Origin: a virus
Lineage: Duplodnaviria; Caudoviricetes
Strand: one strand, 5' to 3'
DNA: 64,000 nucleotides
IMG/VR virus record: IMGVR_UViG_3300037851_000542
Coordinates: 1-64,000 of that record
Shown here: piece by piece, positions 9,541 through 27,608 of the stretch
How positions within the stretch are numbered: position 1 is the stretch's first letter
Layout of the letters: every line of letters begins with the position of its first letter
Notes under the pieces: generated by a model
The model's database searches: none
Seen by the model: only the letters and a program-made list of their open reading frames with translations
What the model was told of the DNA's origin: nothing
Program-made: the position numbers and the translations under genes

Positions 9541-9959
9541 ACTTTACCTTTATATTAGTTAAACCGTTTCTTTCCTCTTATAGTAACTATCGACTATAAA
9601 CCGGAATTACTATAGCTTTAGATCAAGGTAATACGAATTATTCGTATATTTTATTTCTAATATTGTAACATACTGAAAACACATAAAATTATATTTCATA
9701 GGTAATTCTATTAGATTGATAAATAATTCTTTACAGCATTAAAGCTACCAGGATTGATTCTAATTAGTTTTATGGTCTATTGATACAATGGTATAGACTC
9801 AATACCGATCATTCAATGGTAACAATCCTCAATAGAATCAATAGGTTATGTTGGCATAGTTTTTTATTTTGTATGGATATTGCATAGCTTTATTTAAAGC
9901 TAATTTTAAATAAAAATATAAGAGAATTCCCTAGGGAATTCTCTTATATATCACATATA

Positions 9960-10163
9960 CTAGTTTTTCTTATGTTCTATTATCTCAGTTAATAATTTAT
10001 ATATTCCAGCTATAGCTGGGTTCTTGTTACCTTTAATAATAGACTTTAAACTATTATCTTTCATCTCGATTAGTGTATCAATTGATAATCCCATAAATAC
10101 ATGACAAGTAACATCATCATTCTGAACTAGGGAATCAAATATATTGCTCATAGTAATCACCAT
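9960..10163 (-). CDS. hypothetical cassette protein
   Basis: ORF between promoter 10283 and hairpin 9916. Confidence 0.7.
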   Translation of the reverse strand: MVITMSNIFDSLVQNDDVTCHVFMGLSIDTLIEMKDNSLKSIIKGNKNPAIAGIYKLLTEIIEHKKN

Positions 10164-11280
10164 TAGTTAATTAGATACTTTTATAAGTTCTTTTTTACAA
10201 GTTATTAGGATTAAAATACATATAAACAATTTAATAGCGATCATCTTATTCCTTTATTTGGTATCTTTCCTCTTATAGTAATTATCGGACTAATCAAGAA
10301 TACTCTTTAGGTTATTATTTAAAAATAGGTGATTCTCTTAGGTCACGCCATTATAAAAATAAGGTATAATCCTTTTACCTAAGTGTTTGAAAGTCTTACA
10401 TAATATAAACTTAATAGAATCAGCTATTTATAAGCTATTAATATACTTACATAAAATTAACCATATGAAATAATTCACTAAAATTAAGTATATGACATAC
10501 TTAAGGAAATCTAAGTAATTGATATAATTGAATAAATTTAACTATATAATATGTTTAAACAAAGTTAAGTATCTGATTTAATTAAGAAAAGTTAAGTACT
10601 CGATCTCAGGTAGAAACTATAACTTTCTTGTAGCTTTATATAAAGATAGCTTTAAATAAAGGCAAACGGTCAACCAAACCTAGCCTTTTTCAAGGCTAGG
10701 TTTTTATCATTATAAATTATTATATGTATTCTAGCTTTGTATTAGAAACTAAGAAATACCCCTAGGGGTATTTCTTAGTACCTCCTATTACAGTATAAAT
10801 AGATTCTTAGGAATCTTCTTATAGTGCCTACCATTCTTTTCTACAAATACTCTTATCTTATTCTCAGGAGCATTCTTTTTCATTATGAGTGTAGTTAATC
10901 CTAAACTCATGACAGCCCCGAATATTAATCCTACTAATACAGATAATACTTCTAACATTGTTCATTCTCCTGTGTTAATTCTTCTGTGGTTACTAATAGT
11001 CCTCTTGATTCTAATACTTTGTAATGGTCTTGGATGTCTTGTTCGGTGATCTCACCTAGTGATTCTGTATATAATCCTCCTAGTTCTTCTATTGAGGGTC
11101 TCATATTTTGGTACTCCTTTTTTTGCCTTATGTATATACTATCGGATCTAATCGTAGATTACTTTAGTTTTATTTTTCTCTCTAGGTAATTTTCTTAGGT
11201 GCCCCAAAATTAAATCAGCTTTATATAAAGCTAAGTATGTAAGCTAAGAGAATCCCCTAGGGGATTCTCTTAGTGTTATC

Positions 11281-11502
11281 TTATTCCCAATATAGCTTTC
11301 CTGATACAGCACCTTTTACTTTAGTTAAACCACAATCTTTCATAAATTGTTCTTTCTGTTTCCTTTCTATTGCTTTGATTGCTTTCTTTCTTAGTTCTTT
11401 ATACTCCTTTGGTTGGTCTAGTTCGGTTACTATGGTTCCAGTAGTATTGATTCGAATTGATCTTTCTTTGGTTTCTTTGTTTTGAAGTAGTGTATATTTC
11501 AT
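11281..11502 (-). CDS. hypothetical cassette protein
   Basis: promoter 11536, GGAG SD, terminator 11244. Confidence 0.8.
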   Translation of the reverse strand: MKYTLLQNKETKERSIRINTTGTIVTELDQPKEYKELRKKAIKAIERKQKEQFMKDCGLTKVKGAVSGKLYWE

Positions 11503-11590
11503 TTTAATTACTCCTATTTTTTGCCCATATAAGTATATCGGATGATATACTTATAAACTTTAGATTGAAATTACTACCTAGGAAATATTA

Positions 11591-11890
11591 CTAGTTTATC
11601 TCTTTGTTCTCTTGTCTTCCAAAGATAACAGTAGCACAATCAATAATCAAAGTAGGCTCTATATTGGTTACTACTGAAACGAATATAGCAGGCTCAAAAC
11701 ATCTCTTTTTAAGGGTATTAAGATGCTCTTGAGAATGTATAACCATATTACAGGTGATGTTATTGTTTACTTCGACTATTACACTTCCTAGTTCATCGTT
11801 TATGAATTTAGTTATCATTCCATATATAGGATAAGTTTTTCCTAGTTCTGGTTTTTCTACTTGCGGGTTTAGTTGTAATTGGTTGTTCAT
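11591..11890 (-). CDS. hypothetical cassette protein
   Basis: promoter 11931, AGGAG SD. Confidence 0.8.
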   Translation of the reverse strand: MNNQLQLNPQVEKPELGKTYPIYGMITKFINDELGSVIVEVNNNITCNMVIHSQEHLNTLKKRCFEPAIFVSVVTNIEPTLIIDCATVIFGRQENKEIN

Positions 11891-12107
11891 TGTAGCACTC
11901 CTAATATGGGTTTTTTCCTCTTAGTAATAGTATCGGATCTAATCAGATAAATCTTTATATTAAAATAGCTCTGTCTAGGTATTTTTCTTAGTTGCCCCGA
12001 AATAAAATCTGCTTTATGTAAAGCTAGGCAGTTGGCACGAAGATTGCATAGCTTTATATAAAGCTATCACATAATTAAGAGAATCCCCTAGAGGATTCTC
12101 TTACTCT

Positions 12108-12305
12108 TTAAAGTATTTGTAAACAGTATGTAGTTAGTGGTACTAGGTTTTTTTCTAAGTGTTCAGAGTAAAAATCAATCTTTAATTCTAGTTTAACTAA
12201 TAATTTTTCTTCCTGTTCTGTTAGTCTTCTGTGTAGCATTGCATTGCATAACTCAGTATGCTTATCTAGTGCTTTCTTTAGTTTTAGTTCCGTTTTAGTT
12301 AGCAT
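12108..12305 (-). CDS. hypothetical coiled-coil protein
   Basis: 65-aa ORF, AAGGA SD. Confidence 0.7.
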   Translation of the reverse strand: MLTKTELKLKKALDKHTELCNAMLHRRLTEQEEKLLVKLELKIDFYSEHLEKNLVPLTTYCLQIL

Positions 12306-12321
12306 CCTTTACCTTATGTTT

Positions 12322-12615
12322 TTATCCTATTATTACTACTCCGTTAACCTTATCACCTTTCTTTAATTGTTTAGCTTTACACTGCTCAACAAAATCTAAA
12401 GGAAAGTCAAACGGTACCGCTCCATAACTAGGTGACAAGTGCATAAAATACTTTGCATTACTGCCTTTACTATTTAATACTCCTTTTCCTGTAATTGGAT
12501 CAAATTGACCTATAGACTTGTCAGATTGGACCGTGATAGTCCTATCACCATCATTAAAAGGATATACACTAAATTCTTGTGGTTTTCTCATATTGCCTAG
12601 TTTTGCAGTGATCAT
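12322..12615 (-). CDS. hypothetical phage protein
   Basis: promoter 12649, GGAGG SD. Confidence 0.8.
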   Translation of the reverse strand: MITAKLGNMRKPQEFSVYPFNDGDRTITVQSDKSIGQFDPITGKGVLNSKGSNAKYFMHLSPSYGAVPFDFPLDFVEQCKAKQLKKGDKVNGVVIIG

Positions 12616-12783
12616 ATTACCTCCATTGTATCTTGCCTTATATAAGTATATCGGAGTACTTTTAATTTATCTTTAGGTTAAAGTAATATGTTTACGAGTT
12701 TTTCTTACTTGCCCCAGAATTAAATTAGCTTTATATAAAGCTATCGTACAAATAAGAGAATCCCCTAGAGGATTCTCTTATTT

Positions 12784-13014
12784 CTAATCAATTAGTGAAC
12801 CTAGACTCAACTCTAACTTTAGATTACGAAAATCCTCTAGTAGGTCATAACTAGCAGTGTAATAATGTCCTGTAAAAGATGCCTCTATTAGTCTACCGTT
12901 CACGATCTTATATATCGTCGTGTTCCTGCCAAAATCTTCAAAGACGATATTTACTTCGTGAACTTCGTTAAACATAACTCTATCCAGACCTAATTGATGT
13001 TCCGTGTATGTCAT
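12784..13014 (-). CDS. hypothetical cassette protein
   Basis: promoter 13058, AGGAG SD; shares TIYKIVNGRL-type motif with 15608. Confidence 0.8.
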   Translation of the reverse strand: MTYTEHQLGLDRVMFNEVHEVNIVFEDFGRNTTIYKIVNGRLIEASFTGHYYTASYDLLEDFRNLKLELSLGSLID

Positions 13015-13224
13015 GTCTTTACTCCTGTTGAAGGTTATTTTCTACTCTCATATACACTATCGACGCATAATTAAGAATCCTTTAGACCAATCTTAAGATG
13101 CTACGAAAAACTCGTAGGCTACCGAATCTTGCTTAGCTTTATATAAAGCTAATTTATATCACGTTAGCTTTATATAAAGCTAACCTCTGCTAATTTAATT
13201 TTGGCGCAATAATTGCATAGCTTT

Positions 13225-13515
13225 TTATTGGTATATACTAAGAATAATTAACCAAGGTATAACAGCTAGTGAAAAGTAAACAGTATTCAAACATATAAAT
13301 ATAACTTTGTAATGCTTACATAAAATAAATATGGATATGCCACATAATAAAGCAAACAATTTTCCTATAATTAAAGCGTTTATAACTCCATATTGAACCA
13401 TTAAATAGCTCAATAATGGATTACCCTCACCTTGTATAGAATGAGTACTAACACCAATATACGTTAGTACTCCATCTAGGATCTGTAATATTATAAAGGT
13501 TATTAGTAGGTTCAT
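13225..13515 (-). CDS. small membrane protein (DUF5658-like)
   Basis: ILQILDGVLTYIGV...GEGNPLL pattern, 3 hydrophobic segments. Confidence 0.65.
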   Translation of the reverse strand: MNLLITFIILQILDGVLTYIGVSTHSIQGEGNPLLSYLMVQYGVINALIIGKLFALLCGISIFILCKHYKVIFICLNTVYFSLAVIPWLIILSIYQ

Positions 13516-13520
13516 ATAGT

Positions 13521-13766
13521 TTAACAGGTTACTAATGCTACTGCTAGTTTATCATCATCTAGTAGTTTTATGTATATGCTGGAAAAATATGTTTCACTTA
13601 TTACGCCATCAAAAAAATCATCTTTGAGGTACATAGCGTCATCAATATCAAACCATCTACCTTTTAACTCAAATCCTTCTACTAAATCTTTTGATGGATC
13701 TTCCTCATTCGGTCTAAATTCTACATCAACAACCTTTACATAGTGGATAGTTTGTTCATTGCTCAT
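13521..13766 (-). CDS. hypothetical acidic protein
   Basis: promoter 13800. Confidence 0.75.
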   Translation of the reverse strand: MSNEQTIHYVKVVDVEFRPNEEDPSKDLVEGFELKGRWFDIDDAMYLKDDFFDGVISETYFSSIYIKLLDDDKLAVALVTC

Positions 13767-14200
13767 AAATGTTACCTATGTTTTTTTGCCTATAGTAGTT
13801 ATCGGAACGAATCAAAGAATACTTTACACTTAAATCTTATTTCTAGGTAATTTTCTTAGTTGCGCCGAAATGTCTTAGCTTTATATAAAGCTGGCACAAG
13901 ACTTGCTTAGCTTTATATAAAGCTAAGCCGTTGGCACGATTCTTGCATTATGCATAACCTGTGCCATAAGTGAATCTATTAGAGTCTGGTAGAATCTATC
14001 AAAGTCCTATAGCTTTATATAAAGTCTTGCGCACGCGCACGGACAACTTTATATAAAGGTAGCTTTATATAAAGGCAAACGTGTAACCAAACCTAGCTTT
14101 ATATTAATATAGCTTTATATTATTGCAAAAACCTTAACCAAACCTAGCTTTATATTAGAGTCTAAGAAATACCCCTAGGGGTATTTCTTAGTAGTTTACT

Positions 14201-15031
14201 TTAGTATACAAATCCTAAACTTTCAATATCTTTTCTGAATTCAGCCATTAGAGCAGGTAAACGATCAAGTAATAGTTTTGTTAATTCCTCTTTAGGTAAT
14301 GATAATTGTTCGTCGGTAGCATCCGGCCAAATTCCGGTATTTCTAGCCTTATCTAGTTCTCTTTCTTTTCCTTCACTGAAGGAAGTAGCTACTTTGATTA
14401 TTTCAAAATCATTTTTAACAAATTCATCCCAAATTAAAGGATTCTTAGAAGTATCACCATAAAAATCTAAAGCAAAAGGGCATTCATGCCATTTTGTTGT
14501 GTAACCTTCTGGCGATAACTTACTAGAAAAATTGCTAGGGTTATCTTTACCATAAGGAACTTCTACTAGCTTTATATTAGATAAGTATCCTCTATTTTCT
14601 TCAATCCATTTTATAAATGATTTGGAGTAGTTAGTAAATGGCACATTAAAGTTATTAAACTTAACAGCATATTCAAAGGATGATGGTTCACCTTTAGATC
14701 TTCCCCAACAATCCTTATCACCAGCCAAATAAACCGTATTATTAACATAATACATAGGCTGATCGGAACTACAGAGATGCCATTTGATTAAATGAGCATA
14801 TTCAGGAAAATGTTCTTGTATTTGATCGTGTATACATCCTCCTGAACCTTCACGCCATCTACCACGATCTAAGTATTCGGTTTCTCCTGTAATAGCAAAG
14901 GTATTGTGTTTATTATTGCATTCGTCATCATACCTAATTTTTACTCTGATTCTTTCTGTACCTTCATTGAATAGCTTCCAATCAGATTGAATAACTTGTT
15001 TCTTAGTTAATATGCTTTCTGGTAGTGACAT
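14201..15031 (-). CDS. conserved hypothetical phage protein (276 aa)
   Basis: long clean ORF, promoter 15075, terminator 14162. Confidence 0.85.
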   Translation of the reverse strand: MSLPESILTKKQVIQSDWKLFNEGTERIRVKIRYDDECNNKHNTFAITGETEYLDRGRWREGSGGCIHDQIQEHFPEYAHLIKWHLCSSDQPMYYVNNTVYLAGDKDCWGRSKGEPSSFEYAVKFNNFNVPFTNYSKSFIKWIEENRGYLSNIKLVEVPYGKDNPSNFSSKLSPEGYTTKWHECPFALDFYGDTSKNPLIWDEFVKNDFEIIKVATSFSEGKERELDKARNTGIWPDATDEQLSLPKEELTKLLLDRLPALMAEFRKDIESLGFVY

Positions 15032-15250
15032 CTTTTTATTCCTTATTAAAAGGTTTTTTTCCTCTTATATTAACTATCGGTATTATATTCAGAATGCTTT
15101 AGATTGATTTGTTCTTTCTAGGTATTTTTCCTACTTGCCCCGCATCAAACCTGCTTTATATAAAGCAGGTTTATGGTAACTGAGCTTTATATAAAGCTCA
15201 GTATATAAGCTAAAAGAATCCCCTAGGGGATTCTTTTAGTTTGTTAAAAT

Positions 15251-15535
15251 TTAATTTGCAGTAAAGGATCTACTTTCAGGAGTATTAATAACAATAGGAT
15301 CAAAGTCATGTAATTGTGTTTCTCCTGTTAATGATTGTATCTTACTTGCAAATAATCTGGATACTCTATGTTGATTAACCCATTCAGTACCTTTATTGTT
15401 TTCATTAGCTAATTGCCACAATCTTTCCGTAATAGCAGAAAAGGATCTTACTACACCACTAAGATTACAAGCATTCTGAACCTGTATTGCTTCATTTATT
15501 AGTTCACTTTCTGAATAATTAGTATATCGTGACAT
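15251..15535 (-). CDS. hypothetical cassette protein
   Basis: promoter 15574, GGAG SD, terminator 15210. Confidence 0.8.
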   Translation of the reverse strand: MSRYTNYSESELINEAIQVQNACNLSGVVRSFSAITERLWQLANENNKGTEWVNQHRVSRLFASKIQSLTGETQLHDFDPIVINTPESRSFTAN

Positions 15536-15607
15536 GTTATATTCTCCTATATAATTTTTCCTACTAAATAAACTATCGGCACAATTTAAAATAAACTTTA
15601 GGTTAAT

Positions 15608-15997
15608 TTATCGGTAAAGATTAGAATACTGTGAATCTTTTAATTTTGCTTTTAAGTCTTCTACTACATAACCAATATGACTAGTAAATTTTGCTGATAC
15701 TAGTCTATCATTTATTACCTCATAGATAAGAGTATGGGGAAACTTTTTACCAAAGGTAAGAAATACTCTTAAGTGTTTTTTGTTTGCCGTATAAAAATAA
15801 ATGTTATTATTGTGATCTGTATACTTCCATGTTTCATTGACTTTATGGTGTAAATTTATAATAGCGTTTAATGCTTTGATTCTAGATTGTGTTAATTTAC
15901 TTTCATTATTGGCTTCACTTTTTTTACAATCTTCTAAATGCTTTTCTAAGTCAGCCAATTTTTTAAATAGTCTTATTTCTTTAGTAGTAGTATTCAT
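15608..15997 (-). CDS. hypothetical cassette protein
   Basis: promoter 16032. Confidence 0.8.
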   Translation of the reverse strand: MNTTTKEIRLFKKLADLEKHLEDCKKSEANNESKLTQSRIKALNAIINLHHKVNETWKYTDHNNNIYFYTANKKHLRVFLTFGKKFPHTLIYEVINDRLVSAKFTSHIGYVVEDLKAKLKDSQYSNLYR

Positions 15998-16604
15998 ATG
16001 ATTACCTTCTATTTGTTTGCCTATAGTAGTCTATCGGTTCAATAAATAATAATCTTTAGTTTAAAATTAAAATCTAGGTAAATTTCTTAGTCCTTCTCGA
16101 ACAATGCCTAGCTTTATATAAAGCTAGGAAGCTGGCACGAATCTTGTTTGACTTTATCATAATAACATTGTATACTTATTTTGTTGGGGTGAATATACTC
16201 ACTTCGATCAGGACGGACGGGACTGTAGGACTTGCCCTTAGAAACCCCTATTTTCGGATAGCGGGAGTAGTCACATAAAGTGAGCTTTATATAAAGATGG
16301 CTTTATATAAGCGCCATATATAGCCATACCTTGCTTTATATAAAGTTGGCTTTACCTAATTGCAAAATAGACCACCAAACTTAGCTTTATATTAAAATCT
16401 ATTAGATACCCCTAGGGGTATCTAATAGATATGTTATTACTTTTTATCCTTTAACATACAAATTAAACCATTACCTACCCATATAGTTTTATAACCTAGT
16501 GATTTAGCTTTCATATAGTAACTAATATACCTGTTATTTATGATTATCTCATTCCTATTAGATGAATTTCTATATACTTTTTTCACTTTTATTACTCCTG
16601 TTTT

Positions 16605-17138
16605 TTACAATATACTTTCTCTAATGTCATAAAATACCATATCGGGTATAGGTCGATCTCTATTTGTTCTAGAACTAAATATGCTTAGTCCTAAATTACT
16701 ACATATTTCTATTCTATCCCGTTGATTTAAAACCTCGTACCAATATTTATTAATTTCGTTATATTCGGCTTCAGAAATGGCATCTTCATTATACAGTGGA
16801 TAATTCTCTAATGCGCCCAAAATTTCATATACTTTATTTAATACTACCTCACTTGTTTGCTTATGTACTAGTATGGTTTCTATCCAACCTACTGCCCAAT
16901 GATTAGCCTGTATTGATTGAATCATAGGTTCATTACTATCTAACATTGAAACTGTTTCTTCAGTTAGTTTTTCTAAATCCCTTAAGATGCATTCAAAGTT
17001 TACATTAGTATATAATTTGCTATCTCTATGCCTACCATATACCTCAATATAATCATAGAATGTAGGACCAAAGTAGGAATCTGGTAATTTCCAAAAGTTA
17101 TCTGATAGTGCTTCCAAGTTAGTGTTATGTCCTACCAT
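16605..17138 (-). CDS. conserved hypothetical phage protein
   Basis: HWAVGWIETILV motif; promoter 17180, GAGG SD. Confidence 0.8.
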   Translation of the reverse strand: MVGHNTNLEALSDNFWKLPDSYFGPTFYDYIEVYGRHRDSKLYTNVNFECILRDLEKLTEETVSMLDSNEPMIQSIQANHWAVGWIETILVHKQTSEVVLNKVYEILGALENYPLYNEDAISEAEYNEINKYWYEVLNQRDRIEICSNLGLSIFSSRTNRDRPIPDMVFYDIRESIL

Positions 17139-17380
17139 TTTTTATTACCTCTTATGTTTTGTTTTTCCCTATATATGTATATCGGATCTAATCGTAATAA
17201 TCTTTAGACTAGAATTATATTACTAGGTAATTTTCTTAGGTGCGCCAAAATAAAACTGGCTTTGTACAAAGCTTTGCAATCGGCGTGCCAGCTTCGTAGC
17301 TTTATATAAAGCTACGTTTATAAAAAAAGATGCCGGTGCAGAACCTCACCGGCTAGGTTTTTATAGAGTAGGAGTATTAA

Positions 17381-17629
17381 CTATGAGGTAGGATTTAAAT
17401 TATTTAATCTTCTTTCTAAGTTAGAACATTGAGGTTCAAATTGTTTAATTTCTTGTTCAAATATGTATCTTATTTTAGAAACATTTTTAGTCTCTTTATA
17501 AAACCTGTAAGGTGAAACATAATTTAGTTGAGGATGCTTGATATATAACCAACCTAAATCACCATTGTAATACTCTTTTACATCATTACAAAGGTTATCG
17601 AATAATTTGCTGTTTATTTTATCTGACAT
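17381..17629 (-). CDS. hypothetical cassette protein
   Basis: promoter 17664, GGAG SD. Confidence 0.75.
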   Translation of the reverse strand: MSDKINSKLFDNLCNDVKEYYNGDLGWLYIKHPQLNYVSPYRFYKETKNVSKIRYIFEQEIKQFEPQCSNLERRLNNLNPTS

Positions 17630-17693
17630 ATTTCTTACTCCTATGTTTTTCCCTATATATGTTTATCGGCGGTAATTGAATTAAACTTTAGAA

Positions 17694-18092
17694 CTAATTT
17701 ACTTTATTTGTAAGTTTTGCGATCTCCTTTAAATGATTAGCAGGTGAATACTCATTTTTAGGTTCAAACGTTTTACCCTTTCTCAGGTCTTGTATATAGT
17801 TTTTAGGTAATGTAATATCAAAGTAATGGTTTAATCTCCTATGATCTCCTTTACAATCTTCAATTGTAATAGGTCTCATATTATTATTAGGCTCAGGAAA
17901 GATACTATCAAACTCTAATTGTAAAGTTTTAAGTTCAGAGCAGGTACCGTTAAATGTTATGTTTATTACAGTTCTAGATTGACCACAAGTGTTAAAATCA
18001 GTAAACTTGTTTATAATATGTCCTTTACTTTTAAGGAAGTTTATAGCGTTGTTTCTTTCCTCTATAGTGGTTTCAAAGTTATCACGTATCAT
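17694..18092 (-). CDS. hypothetical cassette protein
   Basis: promoter 18132, AGGAG SD. Confidence 0.8.
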   Translation of the reverse strand: MIRDNFETTIEERNNAINFLKSKGHIINKFTDFNTCGQSRTVINITFNGTCSELKTLQLEFDSIFPEPNNNMRPITIEDCKGDHRRLNHYFDITLPKNYIQDLRKGKTFEPKNEYSPANHLKEIAKLTNKVN

Positions 18093-18444
18093 ATTAAACT
18101 CCTTAAGTTATTTTATTCCGCCTATGTATTCTATCGTCACTTGATTATATAAACTTTAGTTTAAAATAAAAGTCTAAGAGTTTTTCTTACTATGCTTTAT
18201 ATCAAGTAGCTTTATCTAAAGCTGAGGTTTTTAAAAGTACCGGATCTGTAAAATCAGATCCGCCTAGCTAGATTAACTCTCTTGTGATTCCTTTATAGCA
18301 TTTTTCTTTTGATTAGTCCTAGTCCTGTTCCTTTTTGTTCTCTTATCTTGCATAGAGGTATTACGGCAAGCCATAGTATTATTAGGGTCTATTCTATCTT
18401 TATAGTTGTTTTTCTTTTTTGTCATAATACTCCTATAGTATACA

Positions 18445-18768
18445 CTAACTTTTATCGGCGTTTGATACTCTTACCCCAAAATTAACGACATCTCTAAGAT
18501 TTTGGGCTGTTATTTTCCAAGATGGCTCATATCCGCATAAATCTAAACCGCTATCCTCTTCTGCTGCCTCTATAAGTGTAGAAAGGTAGTATCTTGCTAC
18601 AAATTGCCCACGTCCCATATCAAAAGAATGTCTTGTATCGTAAAATTCAATAACTGGTTCCTCTTTATCATGTGTCAGACAATCTTCTAAACCGTATGGA
18701 CTGCCCTTAACTAAAACTCTTACATTGAAGGTTATTCCTTGATTGTTAGTTACTTGAATCATATACAC
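18445..18768 (-). CDS. conserved hypothetical phage protein
   Basis: EPVIEFYDTRH...GQFVARYYLSTL motif; promoter 18796. Confidence 0.8.
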   Translation of the reverse strand: MYMIQVTNNQGITFNVRVLVKGSPYGLEDCLTHDKEEPVIEFYDTRHSFDMGRGQFVARYYLSTLIEAAEEDSGLDLCGYEPSWKITAQNLRDVVNFGVRVSNADKS

Positions 18769-19277
18769 CCTATAGTTGTTTGCCTATATAATAACTATCG
18801 GCTTGTTTATATATTATCTTTAGGTTAAAATTTATATATGCAAGTTTTTCTTAGTAGTCCCAGAAATAAACTAGCTTTATATAAAGCGTAGCGTTATATA
18901 AAGCTAGGCGAGCGGCTTTATATAAAGCTAAGCTTTATATAAGCGTCACACGTAGCCATACCTTGCTTTATGTAAAGTCAGCTTAAAATGATCGCAAAAT
19001 AGGCAGCCAAACCTTAGTTTAAGTTATAAATTAAAAAATAGCACTAGAGGGTAGTTTTAGCTTTATATAAAGCAAGATCGTATTTAAAAAAGGTGCCGGA
19101 GGCGAAAACCTCTCCGGCTAGGTTAGGAGGAACTATGATATGCTTAAAGAAAAAAGAGGATACAGGAAAATAAATCTAATGATTAAGGAGGTAATAAACT
19201 GAGATACTATGCTTATTTACTTTCCTCTACCCTCTATATAATATATCGTCACGTTTGTTAAATTACTTTAGTCTTTT

Positions 19278-19571
19278 TTAATAATTATTAATATTTATTT
19301 TTGCCTGCTCTAAACTTTCTATACCCTTTTCTAAGGTCTCAATTTCTCCTGTAAAGGTTTTATCTCCACTAATAGGGTTAGTCACGTACTTAGCTTGTCT
19401 AATAGCAAATACCCTTGTATTATCCTCAAAGCATTTCTTTTCTGAGGTAATAAAAGTACCATTACTAAACAGTTTACTTTCTACTTTTGAAGCGAAAAAC
19501 CTCATAGTATCAAGATCAAAGAAGTGATGTCCAATATCTTTATTAAGTTTTTTTATTTCCTGTATATTCAT
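19278..19571 (-). CDS. conserved hypothetical phage protein
   Basis: GHHFFDLDTMRFFASKV motif. Confidence 0.8.
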   Translation of the reverse strand: MNIQEIKKLNKDIGHHFFDLDTMRFFASKVESKLFSNGTFITSEKKCFEDNTRVFAIRQAKYVTNPISGDKTFTGEIETLEKGIESLEQAKININNY

Positions 19572-19573
19572 TT

Positions 19574-19774
19574 TTAATTATCCTCTTTTATTTCATAAAC
19601 TCCCCAAGTATCAATATCTTGGGTATCAATATATTCAAATAAGATATCGTCGGAACCGTCTTCAAGTTTATTATTGGCTAATTCTATAGCCTGTTCTACT
19701 GACTCGGCTTCCACTTCAAATATTTTAAGCCATCTTTCGTGTACATTAACATGATACTTTTTTTTAGTAGTCAT
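19574..19774 (-). CDS. DpnD/PcfM-like small protein
   Basis: YHVNVHE...FEVEAESVEQAIELA pattern; promoter 19810. Confidence 0.6.
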   Translation of the reverse strand: MTTKKKYHVNVHERWLKIFEVEAESVEQAIELANNKLEDGSDDILFEYIDTQDIDTWGVYEIKEDN

Positions 19775-19967
19775 TTTTTTAATCTCCTATAATTTACCTT
19801 CTAATATTATATCGGCGAGTTTATAGTTTATCTTTAGATTGATTTATTATTTCTAAGTAAATTTCTTATTTGCTCCAGAGCATATGTTAGCTTTATATAG
19901 AGTTAGCTTTATATAAAGCAGGTATATAGGACTAAGAGAATCCCGTAGGGGATTCTCTTAGTTTGGT

Positions 19968-20189
19968 TTAACCTACTAATTGATTTAACTGTGATTGGTC
20001 TACTAATGTTTTTGGATTGCTTCCAACCCAAGAATTTATATGCCTAGTTGTTGTCTTAGTGTAGTATGTATTGGTAACAAAGTATCCTTGATTAGGTATA
20101 TACACGGCTACAGGAGTACTATAACTATACAAAACAATCATACCTTTGATATGTACCTCAGTTTTATTTTTTGCTAAACTTTTAATCAT
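19968..20189 (-). CDS. small phage protein, paralog of 22177
   Basis: shared SLAKNKT...LYSYSTPVA...KTT.RHINSWV. Confidence 0.8.
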   Translation of the reverse strand: MIKSLAKNKTEVHIKGMIVLYSYSTPVAVYIPNQGYFVTNTYYTKTTTRHINSWVGSNPKTLVDQSQLNQLVG

Positions 20190-20425
20190 TTGGATTGACT
20201 CGCTGGACTATTTACAACACTAGGAGCAACAATTTCACCAATAAAGTTTATTAATCCTTCTATACCTTCAATATCTTCTTTTAAAAGTTCTTCGGCATCT
20301 TCATCACTTATGAAGTGTATAAGATCATTTTTTAGCCTGATTTGTACCTCTATTAAAGTATTCAATTGTTTTTCTAATAGATCTAAGTCTACATTTTTAA
20401 TTGTAATATCTTTTGTATTGCTCAT
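20186..20425 (-). CDS. hypothetical protein
   Basis: promoter 20463, GGAG SD. Confidence 0.75.
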   Translation of the reverse strand: MSNTKDITIKNVDLDLLEKQLNTLIEVQIRLKNDLIHFISDEDAEELLKEDIEGIEGLINFIGEIVAPSVVNSPASQSK

Positions 20426-20637
20426 CTTAGTAACTCCCTAAATAATTTACCTTCTAATATTATATCGGCTTGATCAATAATTATCTTTAGGTTAATTACG
20501 TGTTCTAATAGTTTTTCTTAGATTAATATTAAATAAAGGTAGCTTTATATAAAGCTACCTTTATTTAAAGCTAGATTTATATAAAGTTAGTATACTGAGA
20601 CTAAGAGAATCCCGTAGGGGATTCTCTTAGGTGTTTA

Positions 20638-21387
20638 TTATTCTTTTGTAAATAGTTCTAATAGTATCCTACCCTCTTGTAATGCCCTATCAATACCAAA
20701 GAAACCCCAACATGATTCTAAGATTTCATCTTCAGTATGATGACATGAGTTACAAGTATTAGTCTTAGTCACAACAAAACCATAAACATCACCTTCTAGG
20801 TATTTTGCATAAGTCTTAACTTCATTATTAAGGTATTCTAGTATTTGTTCCTTTGATTTATCCTTTAATCCTTCAGATTCAATCTTTGATTTGGTAACAT
20901 ATATCCAGCCTACTTGACCACTATCCCGACCGCAACTAAACCCACTTGTGTTCATTGTAATACCACCATGCTCATATGCATGTAGGTTTAAGTATATTAC
21001 ACTATCAGGAAGATCCGTAACTGTTTGTATGCGTTCTACCGTAGTTTCAAACAATAAGTTTATAGACCGATCATAACTATGTTCTAGGATTTCCCTGTAT
21101 TGACTTATATTACCTTTACAAGTGTTAAGAATAAAATCTAGTTTTTCTTGTTCAGTAGCCTCACTTTCCCATATATCTATTAGAAAAGATTCAGGTTCTT
21201 TATAATTGTGTTTGTCTCCTAACCTATAACCCCTATGAAAGCATATCATTGTTCCTAGGTTATCCCATTCTCTAGGCGACATGGGACAATCATCATTAAG
21301 TATTTCAAGTTTATACCCGTTTTTTACTTCTTTGTGTATTACATATGATGACATAATTATTACCTCTATAATAGTTTTTCTACTCAC
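20638..21387 (-). CDS. conserved hypothetical phage protein (~240 aa)
   Basis: SPREWDNLGTMICFH...HGGITM...SGQVGWIY...YLEGDVYGF...ESCWGFFG; start probably about 21355. Confidence 0.85.
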   Translation of the reverse strand: MSRKTIIEVIIMSSYVIHKEVKNGYKLEILNDDCPMSPREWDNLGTMICFHRGYRLGDKHNYKEPESFLIDIWESEATEQEKLDFILNTCKGNISQYREILEHSYDRSINLLFETTVERIQTVTDLPDSVIYLNLHAYEHGGITMNTSGFSCGRDSGQVGWIYVTKSKIESEGLKDKSKEQILEYLNNEVKTYAKYLEGDVYGFVVTKTNTCNSCHHTEDEILESCWGFFGIDRALQEGRILLELFTKE

Positions 21388-21451
21388 ATTAATATTATCG
21401 GCTACAATATGAATAATCTTTAGGTTAAAATTATAGGTCTAGGTGTTTTTC

Positions 21452-21940
21452 TTATCCACCTCTATTACCTCTATATTCTTTTTCTACTTTAGTCTGTAAT
21501 AATCCTTTTTTATATACTATTTTTCCCTGAAACGCTTGCCCGCTTTCATAGTAACTCAGTTTAATATCTACTAAAGGGAATTTTAAAGCCAATTCTTCAA
21601 TAACCGGTTCTGGCGGTGACCAAGCCGTTAGAAAAGAAACTAAAACTCTTTTTTGTATTCTTTTAGTAGTCGGTAAATTTTCCAGCTGTATTTCGTAAGC
21701 GTTCCATTTGGTACCCCAATTCTCTACACACCAATTATACCCACCAGAATTAAAACCGCTACCCTCTTTTATTTTATCGGCTTCCAAATACCTGGAAGGA
21801 TAAGGAATCAATGTATTAAAATCAAAAATAGACTCACTAGTTTTAATACAATCTAAAACCTTTTGAACATCTTCTATTTTACCTTGAATTAAAAGATCAT
21901 TTTCTACGTGATTAGGCATCCTTTTCTCCCTATGAAACAC
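21452..21940 (-). CDS. DUF1281/YubB ferredoxin-like family protein
   Basis: MPNHVENDL...NWCVENWGTKWNA...FLTAWSPP motifs. Confidence 0.75.
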   Translation of the reverse strand: MFHREKRMPNHVENDLLIQGKIEDVQKVLDCIKTSESIFDFNTLIPYPSRYLEADKIKEGSGFNSGGYNWCVENWGTKWNAYEIQLENLPTTKRIQKRVLVSFLTAWSPPEPVIEELALKFPLVDIKLSYYESGQAFQGKIVYKKGLLQTKVEKEYRGNRGG

Positions 21941-22176
21941 AAATTTAAAATTCTTTTCCTAGTATAATTATCGGACGTATTATCAATTAACTTTAGATTG
22001 AATTATAGGTTTAGGTGTTTTTCTTAGTAATCCCAAAACCAATGTTGGCTTTATATAAAGCTGGAAAGTTGGTATGATTTATGCATAGCTTTATATTAAG
22101 CTACTTTATATAAAGCTATTGGATAAATAAAAATTGCCGTAGTCGGAACCCCTACGGCTAGGTTTATGTTTAAAGG

Positions 22177-22413
22177 TTATAGAAAACTATGTATTACTGA
22201 ATCCGATACGTGTCTTTGGTTGACTAAAGGAGTTACCCAAGAATTTATGTGACGTTTTGTCGTTTTAGAGTAGTTTAAATAATCTTTGGATATTAGGTAT
22301 TCTCCCTTGGTAAAAATTGCTACTGGTGTTGAATAAGAATATAATATTTTAGTTCCATCTAGCTTATAAATTACTGTTTTATTTTTTGCTAAACTTTCAA
22401 GTCTTTGCATCAA
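22177..22413 (-). CDS. small phage protein, paralog of 19968
   Basis: SLAKNKT...LYSYSTPVA...KTTKRHINSWV. Confidence 0.8.
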   Translation of the reverse strand: MMQRLESLAKNKTVIYKLDGTKILYSYSTPVAIFTKGEYLISKDYLNYSKTTKRHINSWVTPLVNQRHVSDSVIHSFL

Positions 22414-22661
22414 TGTAATTCCTCATCAAATAAAATAGTTACCGGTTTTTCTATATTAGTTATTTTTATATTCTTAGTCTCCAATTCATTTATAAAGTTT
22501 CTTAACTCATCTCTATATAAGGTAAGGGCTTCACCTTGTATACTTTTATCTGTATTATTAAATTTAGTGAATACAATACTAGTTCTATCGGTATCAGACA
22601 GAACTAATCCTATTAGGTTGTTATTTTCATCCTTAATAGTTTTCTTTATATGTCTTTCCAT
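22410..22661 (-). CDS. hypothetical protein
   Basis: ATGA-coupled to 22177. Confidence 0.7.
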   Translation of the reverse strand: MERHIKKTIKDENNNLIGLVLSDTDRTSIVFTKFNNTDKSIQGEALTLYRDELRNFINELETKNIKITNIEKPVTILFDEELH

Positions 22662-22666
22662 ATTGT

Positions 22667-22972
22667 TTAATCTCTATAGTGTATGCAGTTTCTAACTACT
22701 TCCCAATTGATCCCTACTTCTGAGTCGTGATTATCTTTTAAATCACATAAAACAGCAAAGGCTTGGTCATCCGTTAAATTTGTATCCATTTCTTGAGCTT
22801 CCATCTTTATATCTTCTATAGACCACATCAATGCAATTTGGCTAGTAGGATCAAATTTTAGAACATCTTTTGGAAAAAGCTCTAACAGTTTTTTAACTTC
22901 CTCTATTGTTGGGTTTTCACTATCTACGAATTCTTGTAATGTTTTCATCTTATTTACTCTTATTTTTACCAC
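22667..22972 (-). CDS. conserved hypothetical phage protein
   Basis: WSIEDI...LTDDQAFAVL...HDSEVGINWEV motif; promoter 22981. Confidence 0.75.
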   Translation of the reverse strand: MVKIRVNKMKTLQEFVDSENPTIEEVKKLLELFPKDVLKFDPTSQIALMWSIEDIKMEAQEMDTNLTDDQAFAVLCDLKDNHDSEVGINWEVVRNCIHYRD

Positions 22973-23015
22973 TAATTATTTATCGGCATTATTATAAAAT
23001 AACTTTAGGTTAAAA

Positions 23016-23291
23016 CTAAATATCTATAAAATATAGGTCTTGATCAGTATAAGGCAATGGTTCTACTACTTCTACAAAGTCCCAACATTTAGGTTGATAC
23101 ATTGTAGCTATATCTTCCCTTGCCTCTTGTTCATTTTTAAATTTACCTTCAATTATATCATCTCCTACAGTTATTTGGTTTGATTGAACATCATAAACTA
23201 TTAGTGCTCTTAAATAGTGTGGTATGTCTTCCGTATTACCAATGTTAATGCTACCTATAATTACTTTTTCCATAATTAAATTCCTATTCAA
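23016..23291 (-). CDS. hypothetical protein
   Basis: ORF in cassette. Confidence 0.7.
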   Translation of the reverse strand: MNRNLIMEKVIIGSINIGNTEDIPHYLRALIVYDVQSNQITVGDDIIEGKFKNEQEAREDIATMYQPKCWDFVEVVEPLPYTDQDLYFIDI

Positions 23292-23496
23292 AGTCTATGT
23301 TTATTGCCTTTGTCCATATACCATCTAAAAGAATATGTAATCCGAATTCATCATCTTCACAAGTATCATCTGCTTTAGTCTCAAATAATCTAGAATCCTC
23401 AGTACTGATAAATCTTCCATCTTCTAAAGGTAACCATAGATCTTGACCTGTTAAATCTTTTCTTACCTTCACAGTATGCTTTACAGTATTATTCAT
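23284..23496 (-). CDS. hypothetical protein
   Basis: promoter 23542. Confidence 0.75.
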   Translation of the reverse strand: MNNTVKHTVKVRKDLTGQDLWLPLEDGRFISTEDSRLFETKADDTCEDDEFGLHILLDGIWTKAINIDFE

Positions 23497-23770
23497 ATTG
23501 GTACCTTTATTTAAGATAGCTTATTTGCCTTCTAATAATAGTATCGTCATTGTTATAAATAATCTTTAAACTAAAATTGTAGTACTAGGTAAATCTATTA
23601 GGTGCGCCGAAATTAAAAGTAGCTTTATATAAAGTTGCTTTATAGCAAGCTAGCTTTATATAAAGCCAGCTTGATGGCACGAATCTTGCTTAGCTTTATA
23701 TAAAGCTACCACACGACTTTATATAAAGCGTAGCTTTATATAAAGTTATAACACAGCTTGATATAAAGTT

Positions 23771-23835
23771 GATCGAACGATCAACCGATCAAAAGATCTA
23801 ATGATCATTTGGGAAACTCACAACCAAACCTAGGC
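23771..23835. repeat. GATC ladder copy 1 (5 GATC at 8-bp period) plus CCAAACCTAGG
   Basis: GATC at 23771, 23779, 23787, 23795, 23803. Confidence 0.9.
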
Positions 23836-24039
23836 TTTTTATTATAATGCGGTTTTAGTTTATTATTTTATTTTTGGGGCACTATATGAAAATGAAACTA
23901 TAAAAAGGCACCCACCCCTTTTACCTATAATGTAATAATATGATCGCTAATCTTATAATATATTCAAAATATGATCGCTAAAGTTATTATATATGAATAT
24001 TTCTGACGCTAAAACATTCATATATAACAAAATAAATCG

Positions 24040-24351
24040 CTAACCTATATCCTTAGTTAAGAACCAATTCCTGTCATACATATCCTGAGTAAATATAATT
24101 TTCTTTAGGTCTGTCTTATCAAATACTGACTCAGTAAGATCTAGGTCTGAAGTAATAGAACTCAATTGATAGTATTGCTTCTCTTGATTTCTATACCTGT
24201 ACTTGTTTACTCCAACTACTTTAGTATTATAAATCGCGGCAAAAGATTCATCCTCCTGATTAGGATCAGCCTTAAGTTTAACATATAAAGTATAGTTACC
24301 TCTGAGTTCGATATTATTTATATCTATAATAGCAAGGTCTTGTTCTGACAT
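24040..24351 (-). CDS. hypothetical protein, paralog-like to 24376
   Basis: YTLYV...YDRNWFLTKD versus YTLHV...YGKTWWLVKD. Confidence 0.75.
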   Translation of the reverse strand: MSEQDLAIIDINNIELRGNYTLYVKLKADPNQEDESFAAIYNTKVVGVNKYRYRNQEKQYYQLSSITSDLDLTESVFDKTDLKKIIFTQDMYDRNWFLTKDIG

Positions 24352-24375
24352 GTCATACTCCTTTATAAAATAAAA

Positions 24376-24600
24376 TTAATCTTTTACTAGCCACCAAGTT
24401 TTACCATAATTCTCTGGTGTGAAAGCAAGATCACATACATCTACTTGTACTGCAATCTTATCGCCACACTTTGAGTCAAAATAAAAATTAGAACTTACCT
24501 TATTATCCAGTTTTACTTCTTTTGCTATACCTTGCACCTCCGTATGAGATACATGTAAGGTATATTCATCTTCCTTGTTCAGGTCTTCCAGTTTAATCAT
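24376..24600 (-). CDS. hypothetical protein
   Basis: promoter 24637. Confidence 0.75.
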   Translation of the reverse strand: MIKLEDLNKEDEYTLHVSHTEVQGIAKEVKLDNKVSSNFYFDSKCGDKIAVQVDVCDLAFTPENYGKTWWLVKD

Positions 24601-24660
24601 AGCTTAATATCCCTTATAGCTTAGCCACTAAATAACTATCGGCGCAGTAAGTAAATAACT

Positions 24661-24948
24661 TTAGATTAAAAATACTAATTTATCTGAATCCAGTAGTATT
24701 GCTGTGTGTATATTTGTAAATTTTGGCGTCGGTGTGGTTTGAACCTGCAACTCCATATAGAAATCGTCCAGAGCAGTAATTTTTCCGGCGACCCAAATAA
24801 AACCGTCTGACTTTCTTTTGATTAGACAAGAAGTACCAACCAAAGTAATACCATTACCAAGCATCCTTAAAAGCCTATCTGTATGAGTACCTTCAAATAT
24901 ATCCTCAAAACTAGGAAGATTAGTATTTATCATATAAAGAAGAACCAC
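24661..24948 (-). CDS. small protein with C-terminal tail
   Basis: ends LVFLI*; stop lies inside the next -35 box. Confidence 0.75.
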   Translation of the reverse strand: MVLLYMINTNLPSFEDIFEGTHTDRLLRMLGNGITLVGTSCLIKRKSDGFIWVAGKITALDDFYMELQVQTTPTPKFTNIHTAILLDSDKLVFLI

Positions 24949-25196
24949 TGAGTATTAGTAGAATCTTTGTGAAAAAAGAAATCCTGTGTCATATAAGAAA
25001 CAATTTTTGTTTTTACGTCCGCATACTTAATTGACCAATCTTGCTCATTATTATCAGTACCCTTAGATACTATTACCCAAGTCTTATTTAATCCTAAATG
25101 ATCGGGGCTATATAAAACTTTAGGTACTTTTATAAAAGTATTTCCATTGTTAAATATAGCCTTTAGTTTATCTTGATTAGTAGGTTTAGTTATCAT
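24930..25196 (-). CDS. small protein with C-terminal tail
   Basis: ends WFFFI*; promoter 25232. Confidence 0.75.
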   Translation of the reverse strand: MITKPTNQDKLKAIFNNGNTFIKVPKVLYSPDHLGLNKTWVIVSKGTDNNEQDWSIKYADVKTKIVSYMTQDFFFHKDSTNTQWFFFI

Positions 25197-25427
25197 CTAG
25201 GTTGATAGTCTCCATAAAAGTATAACATAGGTATCGGCACATACTTAAGATAACTTTAGATATATTTTACTGACCCAGCTTTATATAAAGCGTAGCTTTA
25301 TATAAAGCCCTAGGTTGGTATGATTTATGCATAGCTTTATATCAAGCTGAGCTTGATATAAAGCACCCTTTATTTAAAGCTAGATTTATATAAAGCTAAA
25401 TTAAAATACATAGCTTTATATAAAGTC

Positions 25428-25491
25428 GATCAGCAGATCAAACGATCAAAAGATCTAATGATCATTTGGGAAATTGATCACCAAACCTAGG
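25428..25491. repeat. GATC ladder copy 2
   Basis: GATC at 25428, 25436, 25444, 25452, 25460 and 25476. Confidence 0.9.
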
Positions 25492-25834
25492 CTTTTTAGC
25501 AATTGATTTTTTAATCTATAAATTACTTATTTGGTAACCTGTGGAAGATTATAATTTATAAATAGACCCCACCCTATTGATTTTAAACCTAGTTTAAACT
25601 TTCATTAATTAATGAAAGTTCCTGTAAAAATAGGGTCACTATGGGATAGTTATTTTAGGCTAAAGTTATTTAATATTTAAGTCGTATTATTTATATCAAA
25701 ATTAAAGTATATAATTATATAGACAAACTTTAGATTAAAATAGAGTAGAATAGTAGTATATTTAGTGTGATATATAAATAAACTTTAGATTAAAAACAGG
25801 TTAAAAGTGCTACTATGGGACGGAGAATAAAGAC

Positions 25835-26158
25835 TTAAATTAAAAACTGATAATTATATAACTTATAACCTAAACATAAAAACCATTCTAATTTGGTAAC
25901 ACCACTACCATTACTATAAAAAACAGGATGGTGATGTTTAAGATCTAAGTCTACTGGAGAAACACTATAACTAATATTATAATTAATTCTAGAGGTAATA
26001 GATCTAAGTGTAACAGTTTTAGTAATGATTACAAGACGAAACTGGGGTTTATGACCTATTTCAAATAAGGTTAGCAAAGTAATACTAGATTTATTTCTAA
26101 GTAATCGTTTTATATCTTTTGAGGTTAGTGGAAAAGAATAAGGCTTCTTAGGCGTCAT
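25835..26158 (-). CDS. small protein with C-terminal tail
   Basis: ends YQFLI*. Confidence 0.7.
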   Translation of the reverse strand: MTPKKPYSFPLTSKDIKRLLRNKSSITLLTLFEIGHKPQFRLVIITKTVTLRSITSRINYNISYSVSPVDLDLKHHHPVFYSNGSGVTKLEWFLCLGYKLYNYQFLI

Positions 26159-26256
26159 AATAACAGGTTTTTAGTGAAAATTACCCAACCTATTTATTAG
26201 AGACTAGTCTCTAATAAGAAGATCAGTATTTTTATTAAATATTTTCCTTAAAATAA

Positions 26257-26577
26257 TCAAATCAGGTAGAAAAATAAATGACTTTCTATGTTATCCTTGT
26301 ACATAAATATATTTTCGGGCTTTGTAAACTCATTTCTTGCCTCTAATTTCCATACATTACCATAAACAGAAGACCCCTGAGTAATAGGAATACACCTAAA
26401 AGCATTAAAAGAGTTAAAATAAGTTTTAGTAAGCCTGTCTTTAGGCACACACACCATAAACATATTTATACTTCTATGCAGTGCTTTATTTTTATCTATA
26501 ACCCCTTTGTGGTCGCTGCGTAAAAAACGTAATAACTTCTGATAAGATTTTAAAAACTCACCATTAACACTAGTCAT
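26257..26577 (-). CDS. small protein with C-terminal tail
   Basis: ends LFFYLI*. Confidence 0.75.
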   Translation of the reverse strand: MTSVNGEFLKSYQKLLRFLRSDHKGVIDKNKALHRSINMFMVCVPKDRLTKTYFNSFNAFRCIPITQGSSVYGNVWKLEARNEFTKPENIFMYKDNIESHLFFYLI

Positions 26578-27608
26578 TAGGTCCTTTGATTATTTCATAT
26601 AAAATAATACCAACTAGTACTGCAATTATAGTTAATCCAAAGCAAAAGTGGGGTAAAAATTCCATAATACTATTCCTCGTCGTCATCACTAAGATAAACT
26701 ACATAGATAGAGATTGTTAATAATATACCAATAAATACAAAAAGACCTAAGAGAAATTCTAAAAGAAGTGCCATAAACTACCTATGATAACAATTAAATT
26801 TCAATGATAAACAGTATCCTTATTTGACCTTTTACTTATTATTTTCTTGTTCTATAATCACCGCATCAATATTTTTTAAGATAGCAAAAAACTCCGCATA
26901 TAAGTCTTTTCTTGCCTTGCTTTCCTCTAGCGCTTTTCTTTCTAGCTCTAGTCTCTCGGTCTCTTTTTTAAGAACAAAACTCTTATAATCCAAATATAAT
27001 CCTCAAGCAGCCCATATACCTACACATAAACCAACAAAATAAAAAACAACTCCAAACAAAGTCATAAACAAATACCTATAATAAAAATTAAATTTCGGGG
27101 CAAAATAGATTTATTTCTTTGATTAGTCCCAAAAGATCTCCTTTAAAAAAGGAAACACAGCAACCCCAATAGAAACAAAAACAATACCCAATAATACATT
27201 CTCTAACATAAACTGTCCATTAAAAAATAAAGTTATATAGATCCTATCGGCAGATTACTAGGATTACTTTAGTGTTATTTATGCAGGAAAGGTACTTTGT
27301 CTAGGGCTTTATATAAAGCGCCGAGCTTTATATAAAGCTAGAAGTCCTAGGATGGATTGTAAGAGCTTAAAATGCCTAGGTTAATAGTAGAGAGTGGGTA
27401 AGCAAGAAAAGCCCGTTAAGGGCTTTTCTTGGCTGCTGTAAATTAAATCTAGGTTTACATTAATTATGTGTATTTAAATAAGTTTACACAGTGTGCTACC
27501 CGTAGGGGTATAATATAGGTTTAACCTAGGGTATTATATAAATATTAATTAAGTATTAATTCTAATTTAATTAAATATTAGCTAGAGGTATAATAAACCT
27601 TAACACAA

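Follow-up and report, generated by a model that had tools for sequence, protein, structure and literature searches.

Sigma-54-type boxes set in register with an operator-like palindrome in the early-gene cassettes of a jumbo phage

The window analysed here comprises the first 64 kb of an IMG/VR phage record of 259,994 bp (IMGVR_UViG_3300037851_000542; about 30% GC), and the subject of this report is a set of short boxes in it that resemble the -24/-12 promoters of sigma-54 (RpoN), all of them placed in the spacers of a leftward block of early genes. The block (9130-26993, minus strand) comprises about 38 small genes, mostly orphan, whose spacers are built as cassettes. Read in the direction of the genes, a cassette consists of a hairpin belonging to one of a few repeated families, a single or repeated palindrome with or without a box, a conserved element TTYGGSGCANCTAAGAAAANTACCTAG, a promoter of the sigma-28 type (TAAAG-N16-CCGATA), a Shine-Dalgarno sequence and the start codon; about 25 spacers share these hairpin families together with the palindrome, upstream element and promoter. 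The sigma-28-type promoter is present in 40 copies genome-wide, 20 of which lie in the early block; its copies are spread over positions 5187-57088 of the window and over the remainder of the genome. Matches to sigma-70-like promoters are depleted between 9000 and 28000 (70, versus 101 +/- 9 in shuffled sequences), and in the same interval terminator scores among the big cassette hairpins are more frequent on the plus strand than on the strand of the genes. The element TTYGGSGCANCTAAGAAAANTACCTAG lies about 39-40 nt before the -35 (for example at 11975-12005 and 17225-17255), is kept in a relative of the phage described below, and may serve as an activator or UP-type element of the sigma-28-type promoters.

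The palindrome of the cassettes, 16/18 bp long (TAGCTTTATATAAAGCTA), forms a field of 54 sites with three or fewer mismatches between 9614 and 27339. At the same tolerance the sequence AGCTTTATATAAAGCT has 55 sites versus 2.1 expected, 54 of them within 9.6-27.3 kb, and all 13 exact copies of the whole genome are confined to 11.2-27.3 kb. The copies stand as singles, as abutting doublets at 16-17 bp or as pairs 31-32 or 40 bp apart, and many are without a box; the box would therefore be an add-on to an existing operator lattice. Most likely the palindrome is the operator of a dimeric DNA-binding protein of the phage. No enrichment of it was found in the Bdellovibrionota genomes that we treat below as host-like, so that its reader is more likely phage-encoded, and the palindrome is probably not the site of a host activator. 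A search among the phage proteins found no candidate binder: the sole ParB_N match in the genome, at 15-16 bits, is below the cut-off, and dispersed operators of the ParB/KorB type were rejected as a model for want of a significant match to a ParB-family binder. Also ruled out was an extended palindrome that would include the TTGC of the boxes, as the right flanks do not mirror TTGC. In IMG/VR the palindrome gave 74 single chance matches and no arrays, and the composite pattern of palindrome and box gave no match; the metagenome contigs contained 17 matches, all in unrelated contexts, with one palindrome each and no array.

The boxes are clustered in the same region. The pattern TGGYAY-N5-WTGCW has eight matches in the window versus 0.47 expected, a number reached in none of 100 shuffles, and nine in the 260 kb of the genome, eight of the nine within 13.3 kb (12.0-25.4 kb); the strict form, TGGCAC-N5-TTGC, is found five times in the genome, each time between 12.0 and 25.4 kb. 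Five strict and four or five variant boxes combine the -24 GG and the -12 GC at the fixed spacing of sigma-54 promoters. TGG and the TG of the -12 element are retained in all ten boxes, and no insertion or deletion occurs inside any of them. Every near-consensus box listed in a sequence-only reading that preceded this analysis is present (12032, 13891, 13931, 13951, 17275, 22069, 23675 and 25315), as is the degenerate one at 13201.

The unit in which the boxes recur consists of a palindrome, a 6-nt linker ending in G, the box YTGGCACG-N4-TTGCWT and a second palindrome. The same reading had placed the start of the downstream palindrome 2 nt past the -12 GC, and this register is exact at six boxes (12032, 13891, 17275, 22069, 23675 and 25315); at 13201, and also at 16132, a degenerate palindrome stands in the same 2-nt register. 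Upstream, the linker measures 6 nt in six units and 5 nt at 25310, and is replaced by a 2-nt overlap at 13891. A perfect core (10/10) at the exact offset was found in 4 of 128 palindrome flanks, against a background of 1e-5 per position. The likeness to sigma-54 promoters extends beyond the core, with G at -28 in all units, followed by Y at -27, and with a G next to TGGCAC on its 3' side in most boxes; the -28 position of the published consensus is a purine. Moreover, every variant seen in the phage has a counterpart among the E. coli sigma-54 sites validated by chromatin immunoprecipitation (PMC4591121, Table 1): TGGTAT in ndh and dcuD, TGGCGC in patA, TTGT in pspA, pspG and ygeW, and ATGC in hycA and zraP. 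The paralogous copies have at least six different spacers, with only 9 core deviations in 100 positions. A sigma-70 reading of the unit (TTGGCA, 17 nt, TATATA) was ruled out, as it does not account for the conserved TTGC and has a -10 element without the final T.

The individual units differ in their details. A full unit occupies 12010-12065 (plus strand), with palindromes at 12010-12025 and 12050-12065 and, after the 6-nt linker, the box TTGGCACGAAGATTGCAT at 12032-12049; it aims at the hairpin 12077-12103 of the preceding cassette. The spacer at 13877-13968 contains three boxes: the palindrome 13877-13892 overlaps the first (13891-13908, plus strand) and is followed by a second palindrome (13909-13924), and the remaining two boxes, at 13931-13948 (plus) and 13949-13967 (minus), form a facing pair. 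At 16110-16165 (plus) a palindrome and linker precede the box CTGGCACGAATCTTGTTT (16132-16149), whose -12 element has decayed to TTGT, and a degenerate palindrome follows. The unit at 17258-17313 (minus), with the box CTGGCACGCCGATTGCAA at 17274-17291, is inverted and has the sense of the genes. The unit at 22047-22102 (plus) has a TGGTAT/ATGC variant box (22069-22086) and aims at the hairpin 22134-22160; the identical box recurs at 25315-25332 in the unit with the 5-nt linker (25294-25348, plus), which is followed by a palindrome array and five GATC sites. Another full unit (23652-23707, plus; box ATGGCACGAATCTTGCTT at 23674-23691) lies within an array of seven palindromes, after which a cluster of five GATC sites is again found. 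Finally, the degenerate box TTGGCGCAATAATTGCAT (TGGCGC; 13201-13218, plus), together with the degenerate palindrome that follows it (feature 13201-13234), abuts the stop codon of the gene 13225-13515, and vestigial boxes are seen at 9868 and 13117.

Two other repeated features were noted in the long spacers. The two GATC clusters (23771-23806 and 25428-25463) have five sites each at an exact 8-bp period, with 0 expected, and are placed in two paralogous long spacers just past the palindrome arrays; they may represent a methylation or SeqA-type signal, an origin or a packaging signal. The motif AACCAAACCTAG recurs beside palindromes or half-hairpins at 10664-10710, 14070-14160, 16370-16400, 23820-23850 and 25480-25510.

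The boxes have in common with the classical enhancer-dependent promoters of E. coli (glnAp2, pspA, hypA) the -24 TGGCAC, the -12 TTGC, the exact spacing, the extended consensus, the tolerated variants and the AT-rich sequence after the -12 element. They differ from them in that the phage has no activator gene and no recognisable upstream activator site, that most boxes are aimed away from genes, that a palindrome stands on both sides at a fixed distance, and that they are found in a jumbo phage of the lytic type. In sequence, then, the boxes qualify as sigma-54 promoters, whereas in context they do not, being mostly without a downstream product and without a recognisable activator site. Eight of the ten are on the plus strand, against the genes, and two (13951 and 17275) have the gene sense, in agreement with the orientation bias described earlier; the related claim that the boxes point toward a terminator clearly holds for 12032 and 22069; ahead of the remaining boxes there are more palindromes or long spacers without coding sequence. 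In the facing pair, 3 nt separate the -12 element of the 13931 box from that of the 13951 box.

Such an orientation relative to the genes makes little sense for a promoter, and the facing pair amounts to a long inverted repeat, typical of sites of dimeric proteins, that is conserved in the relative. Perhaps, then, the likeness to sigma-54 is coincidental, and the boxes and palindromes make up a composite operator, a two-part site read by some other protein, most likely encoded by the phage? The boxes are found only beside the phage-specific palindrome, and the binder could be any of the many orphan proteins encoded in the block. The explanation is a possible one, yet we consider it doubtful: it must ascribe to coincidence the agreement with sigma-54 specificity at ten to twelve positions, in the exact spacing, in the preferences at -28 and -27 and in the tolerated variants, and the search for a binder yielded nothing beyond the insignificant ParB-like match.

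The evolution of the boxes could be followed in a close relative, represented by contigs L118, L119, L121 and L122, to which a protein search with a 276-aa product of this phage led through an 81%-identical protein. The relative is collinear with 18.3-13.2 kb of the phage at about 82% nucleotide identity, and shares with it the palindrome, the promoters and the positions of the sigma-54-type boxes; all three boxes of 13877-13968 are kept in L118 and L119. Among the four orthologous boxes (the three of the 13.9-kb spacer and the one at 16.1 kb) 1 of 40 core positions and 9 of 20 N5 spacer positions have changed (Fisher p = 9e-5). The sole core change is the decay of TTGC to TTGT at 16132 in this phage, the relative having the intact TTGC. 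Three of the six linker positions differ between the two phages, and the palindromes are conserved. From these alignments it appears that the boxes are kept by selection in the relative. A GC-richer non-coding segment of about 100 nt (16185-16285; about 1900-2000 in L118), directly downstream of the 16132 box on the plus strand, is about 93% conserved.

Other searches for relatives were less productive. In IMG/VR the 276-aa protein gave only unrelated GC-rich phages; searches with the sigma factor and a tail-fibre protein gave no match, and the jumbo contigs compared are without the sigma factor. In the relative's contig for the 162-aa gene the upstream context is different, and no orthologue of the 22069 box was obtained. 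Exact-protein look-ups returned only 100% identical copies of this phage in other samples, with no variation.

The comparison with the relative also revealed that boxes are gained and lost as discrete units. At 17258-17313 the linker and box are an exact 24-bp insertion, in the gene sense, relative to L118, in which the two palindromes abut. Between strains of the relative, L121 and L118 differ by a replacement that begins just before a box and palindrome (L121:3560-3715 versus L118:1990-2133, after the 177-aa gene), which is either a cassette exchange like those of the PeSL elements of T4-type phages or an assembly join at a repeat. PeSLs, or promoter-early stem-loops (Arbiol et al. 2010, PMC2839356; Comeau et al. 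2014, PMC4122927), are likewise repeated modules of a hairpin and an early promoter between small accessory genes, and are likewise associated with insertions, deletions and replacements between close relatives; in the present case such changes at module breakpoints amount to two events, with an assembly error possible for L121. Unlike PeSLs, the phage cassettes have a sigma-28-type promoter instead of a sigma-70 one, and contain in addition the palindrome arrays and the sigma-54-type box. None of the ten large phage proteins tested gave a T4-type marker.

This mobility raises the question whether the boxes have any function. They could be passengers, a repeated module spread by recombination or gene conversion at identical palindromes, in which case their fixed register would reflect common descent. 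A discrete 24-bp unit between palindromes that can be inverted, the identity of the 22069 and 25315 boxes, the three copies with the spacer GAATC and the replacement with its breakpoint at box and palindrome are all as this explanation would have it. It nevertheless seems quite improbable to us, as spacers and linkers have diverged freely while cores and spacing have not, no insertions or deletions are found inside the boxes, the orthologous boxes are kept at 82% overall identity, and a chance full consensus is very unlikely (by a rough estimate from base composition, about 0.1 strict sites are expected per genome).

If the boxes are sigma-54 sites, the question arises who could read them. The phage genome contains no match to Sigma54_DBD, and for an activator only weak Sigma54_activat matches in two other proteins, one of them a clamp-loader ATPase; the one sigma factor gene of the phage, at 78.3 kb, is a divergent member of the sigma-70 family. 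A clue to the host is provided by the RF1 gene of the phage (42822-43907), which has 46% GC in a genome of 30% and whose sequence is 89% identical in amino acids and 84.5% in nucleotides to prfA of a lake Bdellovibrionota genome, G005 (L223, G005:C32). The prfA contig of G005 (7 kb, 44-51% GC) also encodes Sua5, GroEL and GroES, and is therefore bacterial rather than a mis-binned piece of phage. The next best RF1 matches, at 56-63%, are again mostly from Bdellovibrionota. A second clue comes from the early promoters, whose TAAAG-N16-CCGATA matches, including the 16-nt spacer, the consensus TTAAG-N16-CCGATA; of 140 attack-phase promoters of Bdellovibrio bacteriovorus, a species with FliA as its global sigma factor in that phase, 92 were mapped with this consensus (Karunker et al. 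2013, PMC3627812). This match favours the host FliA as the reader of the early promoters and, together with the transferred RF1 gene, indicates that the host of the phage is probably a Bdellovibrionota of the predatory type.

We know of no jumbo phage of Bdellovibrionota. Searches for further links to the host-like genomes gave little: the 541-aa transposase (38824-40449), encoded in a GC-richer island of 37-39% GC, was not found in them; the strict sigma-54 pattern is no commoner in them than a reversed control; and TAAAG-N16-CCGATA shows only a mild enrichment (20 versus 5). The likeness to the FliA regulon concerns the promoters that neighbour the boxes, not the boxes, and no description of a sigma-54 regulon was found in PMC3627812. 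Concerning the boxes, what matters is that G005 and four relatives all have rpoN (5/5), with 4-9 enhancer-binding proteins each, and FliA in four of the five. A host without rpoN had been named as the circumstance that would speak against sigma-54; with rpoN present in the probable host lineage, to which the RF1 transfer and the promoter likeness connect the phage, the host very probably has sigma-54. It had also been suggested that the joint use of sigma-28 and sigma-54 echoes flagellar regulatory hierarchies. The Bdellovibrio parallel makes this more exact, in that promoters of the sigma-28 type are probably a reflection of the condition in which the phage meets the cell: a predator is presumably met only in its free-swimming attack phase, so that early promoters of the FliA type make sense, and with such promoters the phage would already rely on alternative sigma factors of its host.

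Sigma-54 is the sole bacterial sigma factor that binds promoters without firing, an ATPase being needed to start transcription. We tentatively prefer to regard the boxes as genuine -24/-12 sites for the sigma-54 holoenzyme of the host, gated by the palindrome binder and yielding at most short counter-transcripts. On the model drawn from the sequence, the optional 24-bp insert (6-nt linker and 18-nt box) would sit between the two palindrome copies of a terminator-promoter cassette, and the holoenzyme would bind it in a closed complex that extends from about -34 to -5. If the GC is numbered -13/-12, the downstream palindrome reaches from about -9 to +7, as expected from the earlier proposal that it covers the region of melting and start, its AT-rich centre TTTATATAAA being the part that would melt; the upstream palindrome would lie at about -49 to -34. 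The space from one palindrome centre to the other would be taken up by the closed complex, which would also cover part of the downstream palindrome, so that the palindrome-bound protein and the holoenzyme would compete or touch. Fired by a host activator, the eight antisense boxes would give short counter-transcripts into the preceding hairpin or a non-coding spacer. Those from 12032 and 22069 would meet the hairpin of the previous cassette after 30-70 nt, and those from 23675 and 25315 would run into long spacers that have no coding sequence but contain further palindromes and the five GATC sites; through the sense boxes at 13951 and 17275 the next gene would receive an additional input from sigma-54. 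Elsewhere in the block, several cassette hairpins score as terminators on the plus strand, along which the antisense boxes would be transcribed. Downstream of the boxes, no Rfam match came near a family threshold, the predicted folds of 16150-16290 are no better than those of shuffled sequences, and at 23700 and 25342 the palindromes account for most of the predicted fold.

A number of observations weigh against sigma-54 promoters of this kind. Eight of the ten boxes are directed away from genes, without a conserved product beyond them. An activator site, which usually lies 80-150 bp upstream of a sigma-54 promoter, was not recognised. A host activator without a DNA-binding domain was looked for as well, and both of those inspected carry HTH_8, which leaves activation from solution unsupported. 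At 13931/13951 there is no room for a holoenzyme on each of the facing boxes at the same time, and the pair has the look of a 35-bp inverted repeat, as would be expected of a site for a dimeric protein. Among the sequencing runs that hold the window segment 12000-21999 no RNA runs are listed, only two DNA runs, possibly the source samples. The spacer GAATC recurs in three copies in this phage and in one L118 box; gene conversion would therefore contribute to the pattern of cores and spacers, and may, rather than independent substitution, be behind part of the contrast between them. Lastly, the host assignment is based on one transferred gene and a promoter likeness, and the host-like genomes have 38-54% GC versus 30% for the phage.

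Alternatively, host holoenzyme might bind the boxes but never fire from them, in line with the decoys proposed in the sequence-only reading. The scarce sigma-54 holoenzyme might be parked on, or titrated by, replicating phage DNA, with the sigma-54 regulons of the host damped as a result, or architectural or insulating complexes might form at the cassette borders with the palindrome binder on both sides. Most boxes are near-consensus, with several per genome, and mostly aimed at nothing coding; the palindrome covers the start region, and the phage is without an activator gene and a recognisable activator site. There is also a precedent in E. coli and Salmonella, where non-canonical sigma-54 sites (intragenic, antisense or inactive) are, like the phage boxes, conserved sites that do not precede genes, and for which the discussion has turned on stable closed complexes that stay inactive, on decoys or on unusual transcripts (Bonocora et al. 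2015, PMC4591121); the phage boxes differ from these in being intergenic, clustered, part of a repeated cassette and phase-locked to a site of another protein type. As an explanation of the units the sink or architectural role is rather doubtful in our view. About ten sites per genome are few for titration, neither the fixed register nor the orientation bias is needed for it, and the number of sites is loosely kept (16132 has decayed here, and one box is absent from the relative). The roadblock variant, also put forward in the sequence-only reading, is weakened in particular by the finding that closed complexes inside E. coli genes are without effect on the overlapping genes (PMC4591121).

A more elaborate possibility, which we rate as unlikely on the sequence evidence, is that the unit is a purpose-built trap or switch for the sigma-54 polymerase of the host, worked by a phage protein bound to the flanking operators. 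As a trap, the operator-bound protein would lock the closed complex and sequester sigma-54, silencing the sigma-54 responses of the host during infection. As a switch, it would take the place of the AAA+ activator, and the sigma-54 promoters would fire without an enhancer-binding protein.

To our knowledge, the use of sigma-54 by lytic phages is essentially undescribed, and we found no published arrays of sigma-54-type sites in a lytic phage in the literature searched. Here, a jumbo phage with neither a sigma-54 nor an activator gene keeps consensus-grade sigma-54-type sites in register with its own operator-like palindrome, inside mobile early-gene cassettes. The analysis ties this 260-kb uncultured freshwater phage to a probable Bdellovibrionota host, and the boxes, together with the sigma-28-type promoters, suggest that it is wired to the attack-phase physiology of a predatory-type host. 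If the host holoenzyme binds the boxes, the 56-bp unit would be a tractable object for learning how a virus exploits, gates or sequesters an enhancer-dependent polymerase; and a trap or switch, if it proved true, would be a new viral way to use or disarm enhancer-dependent transcription.

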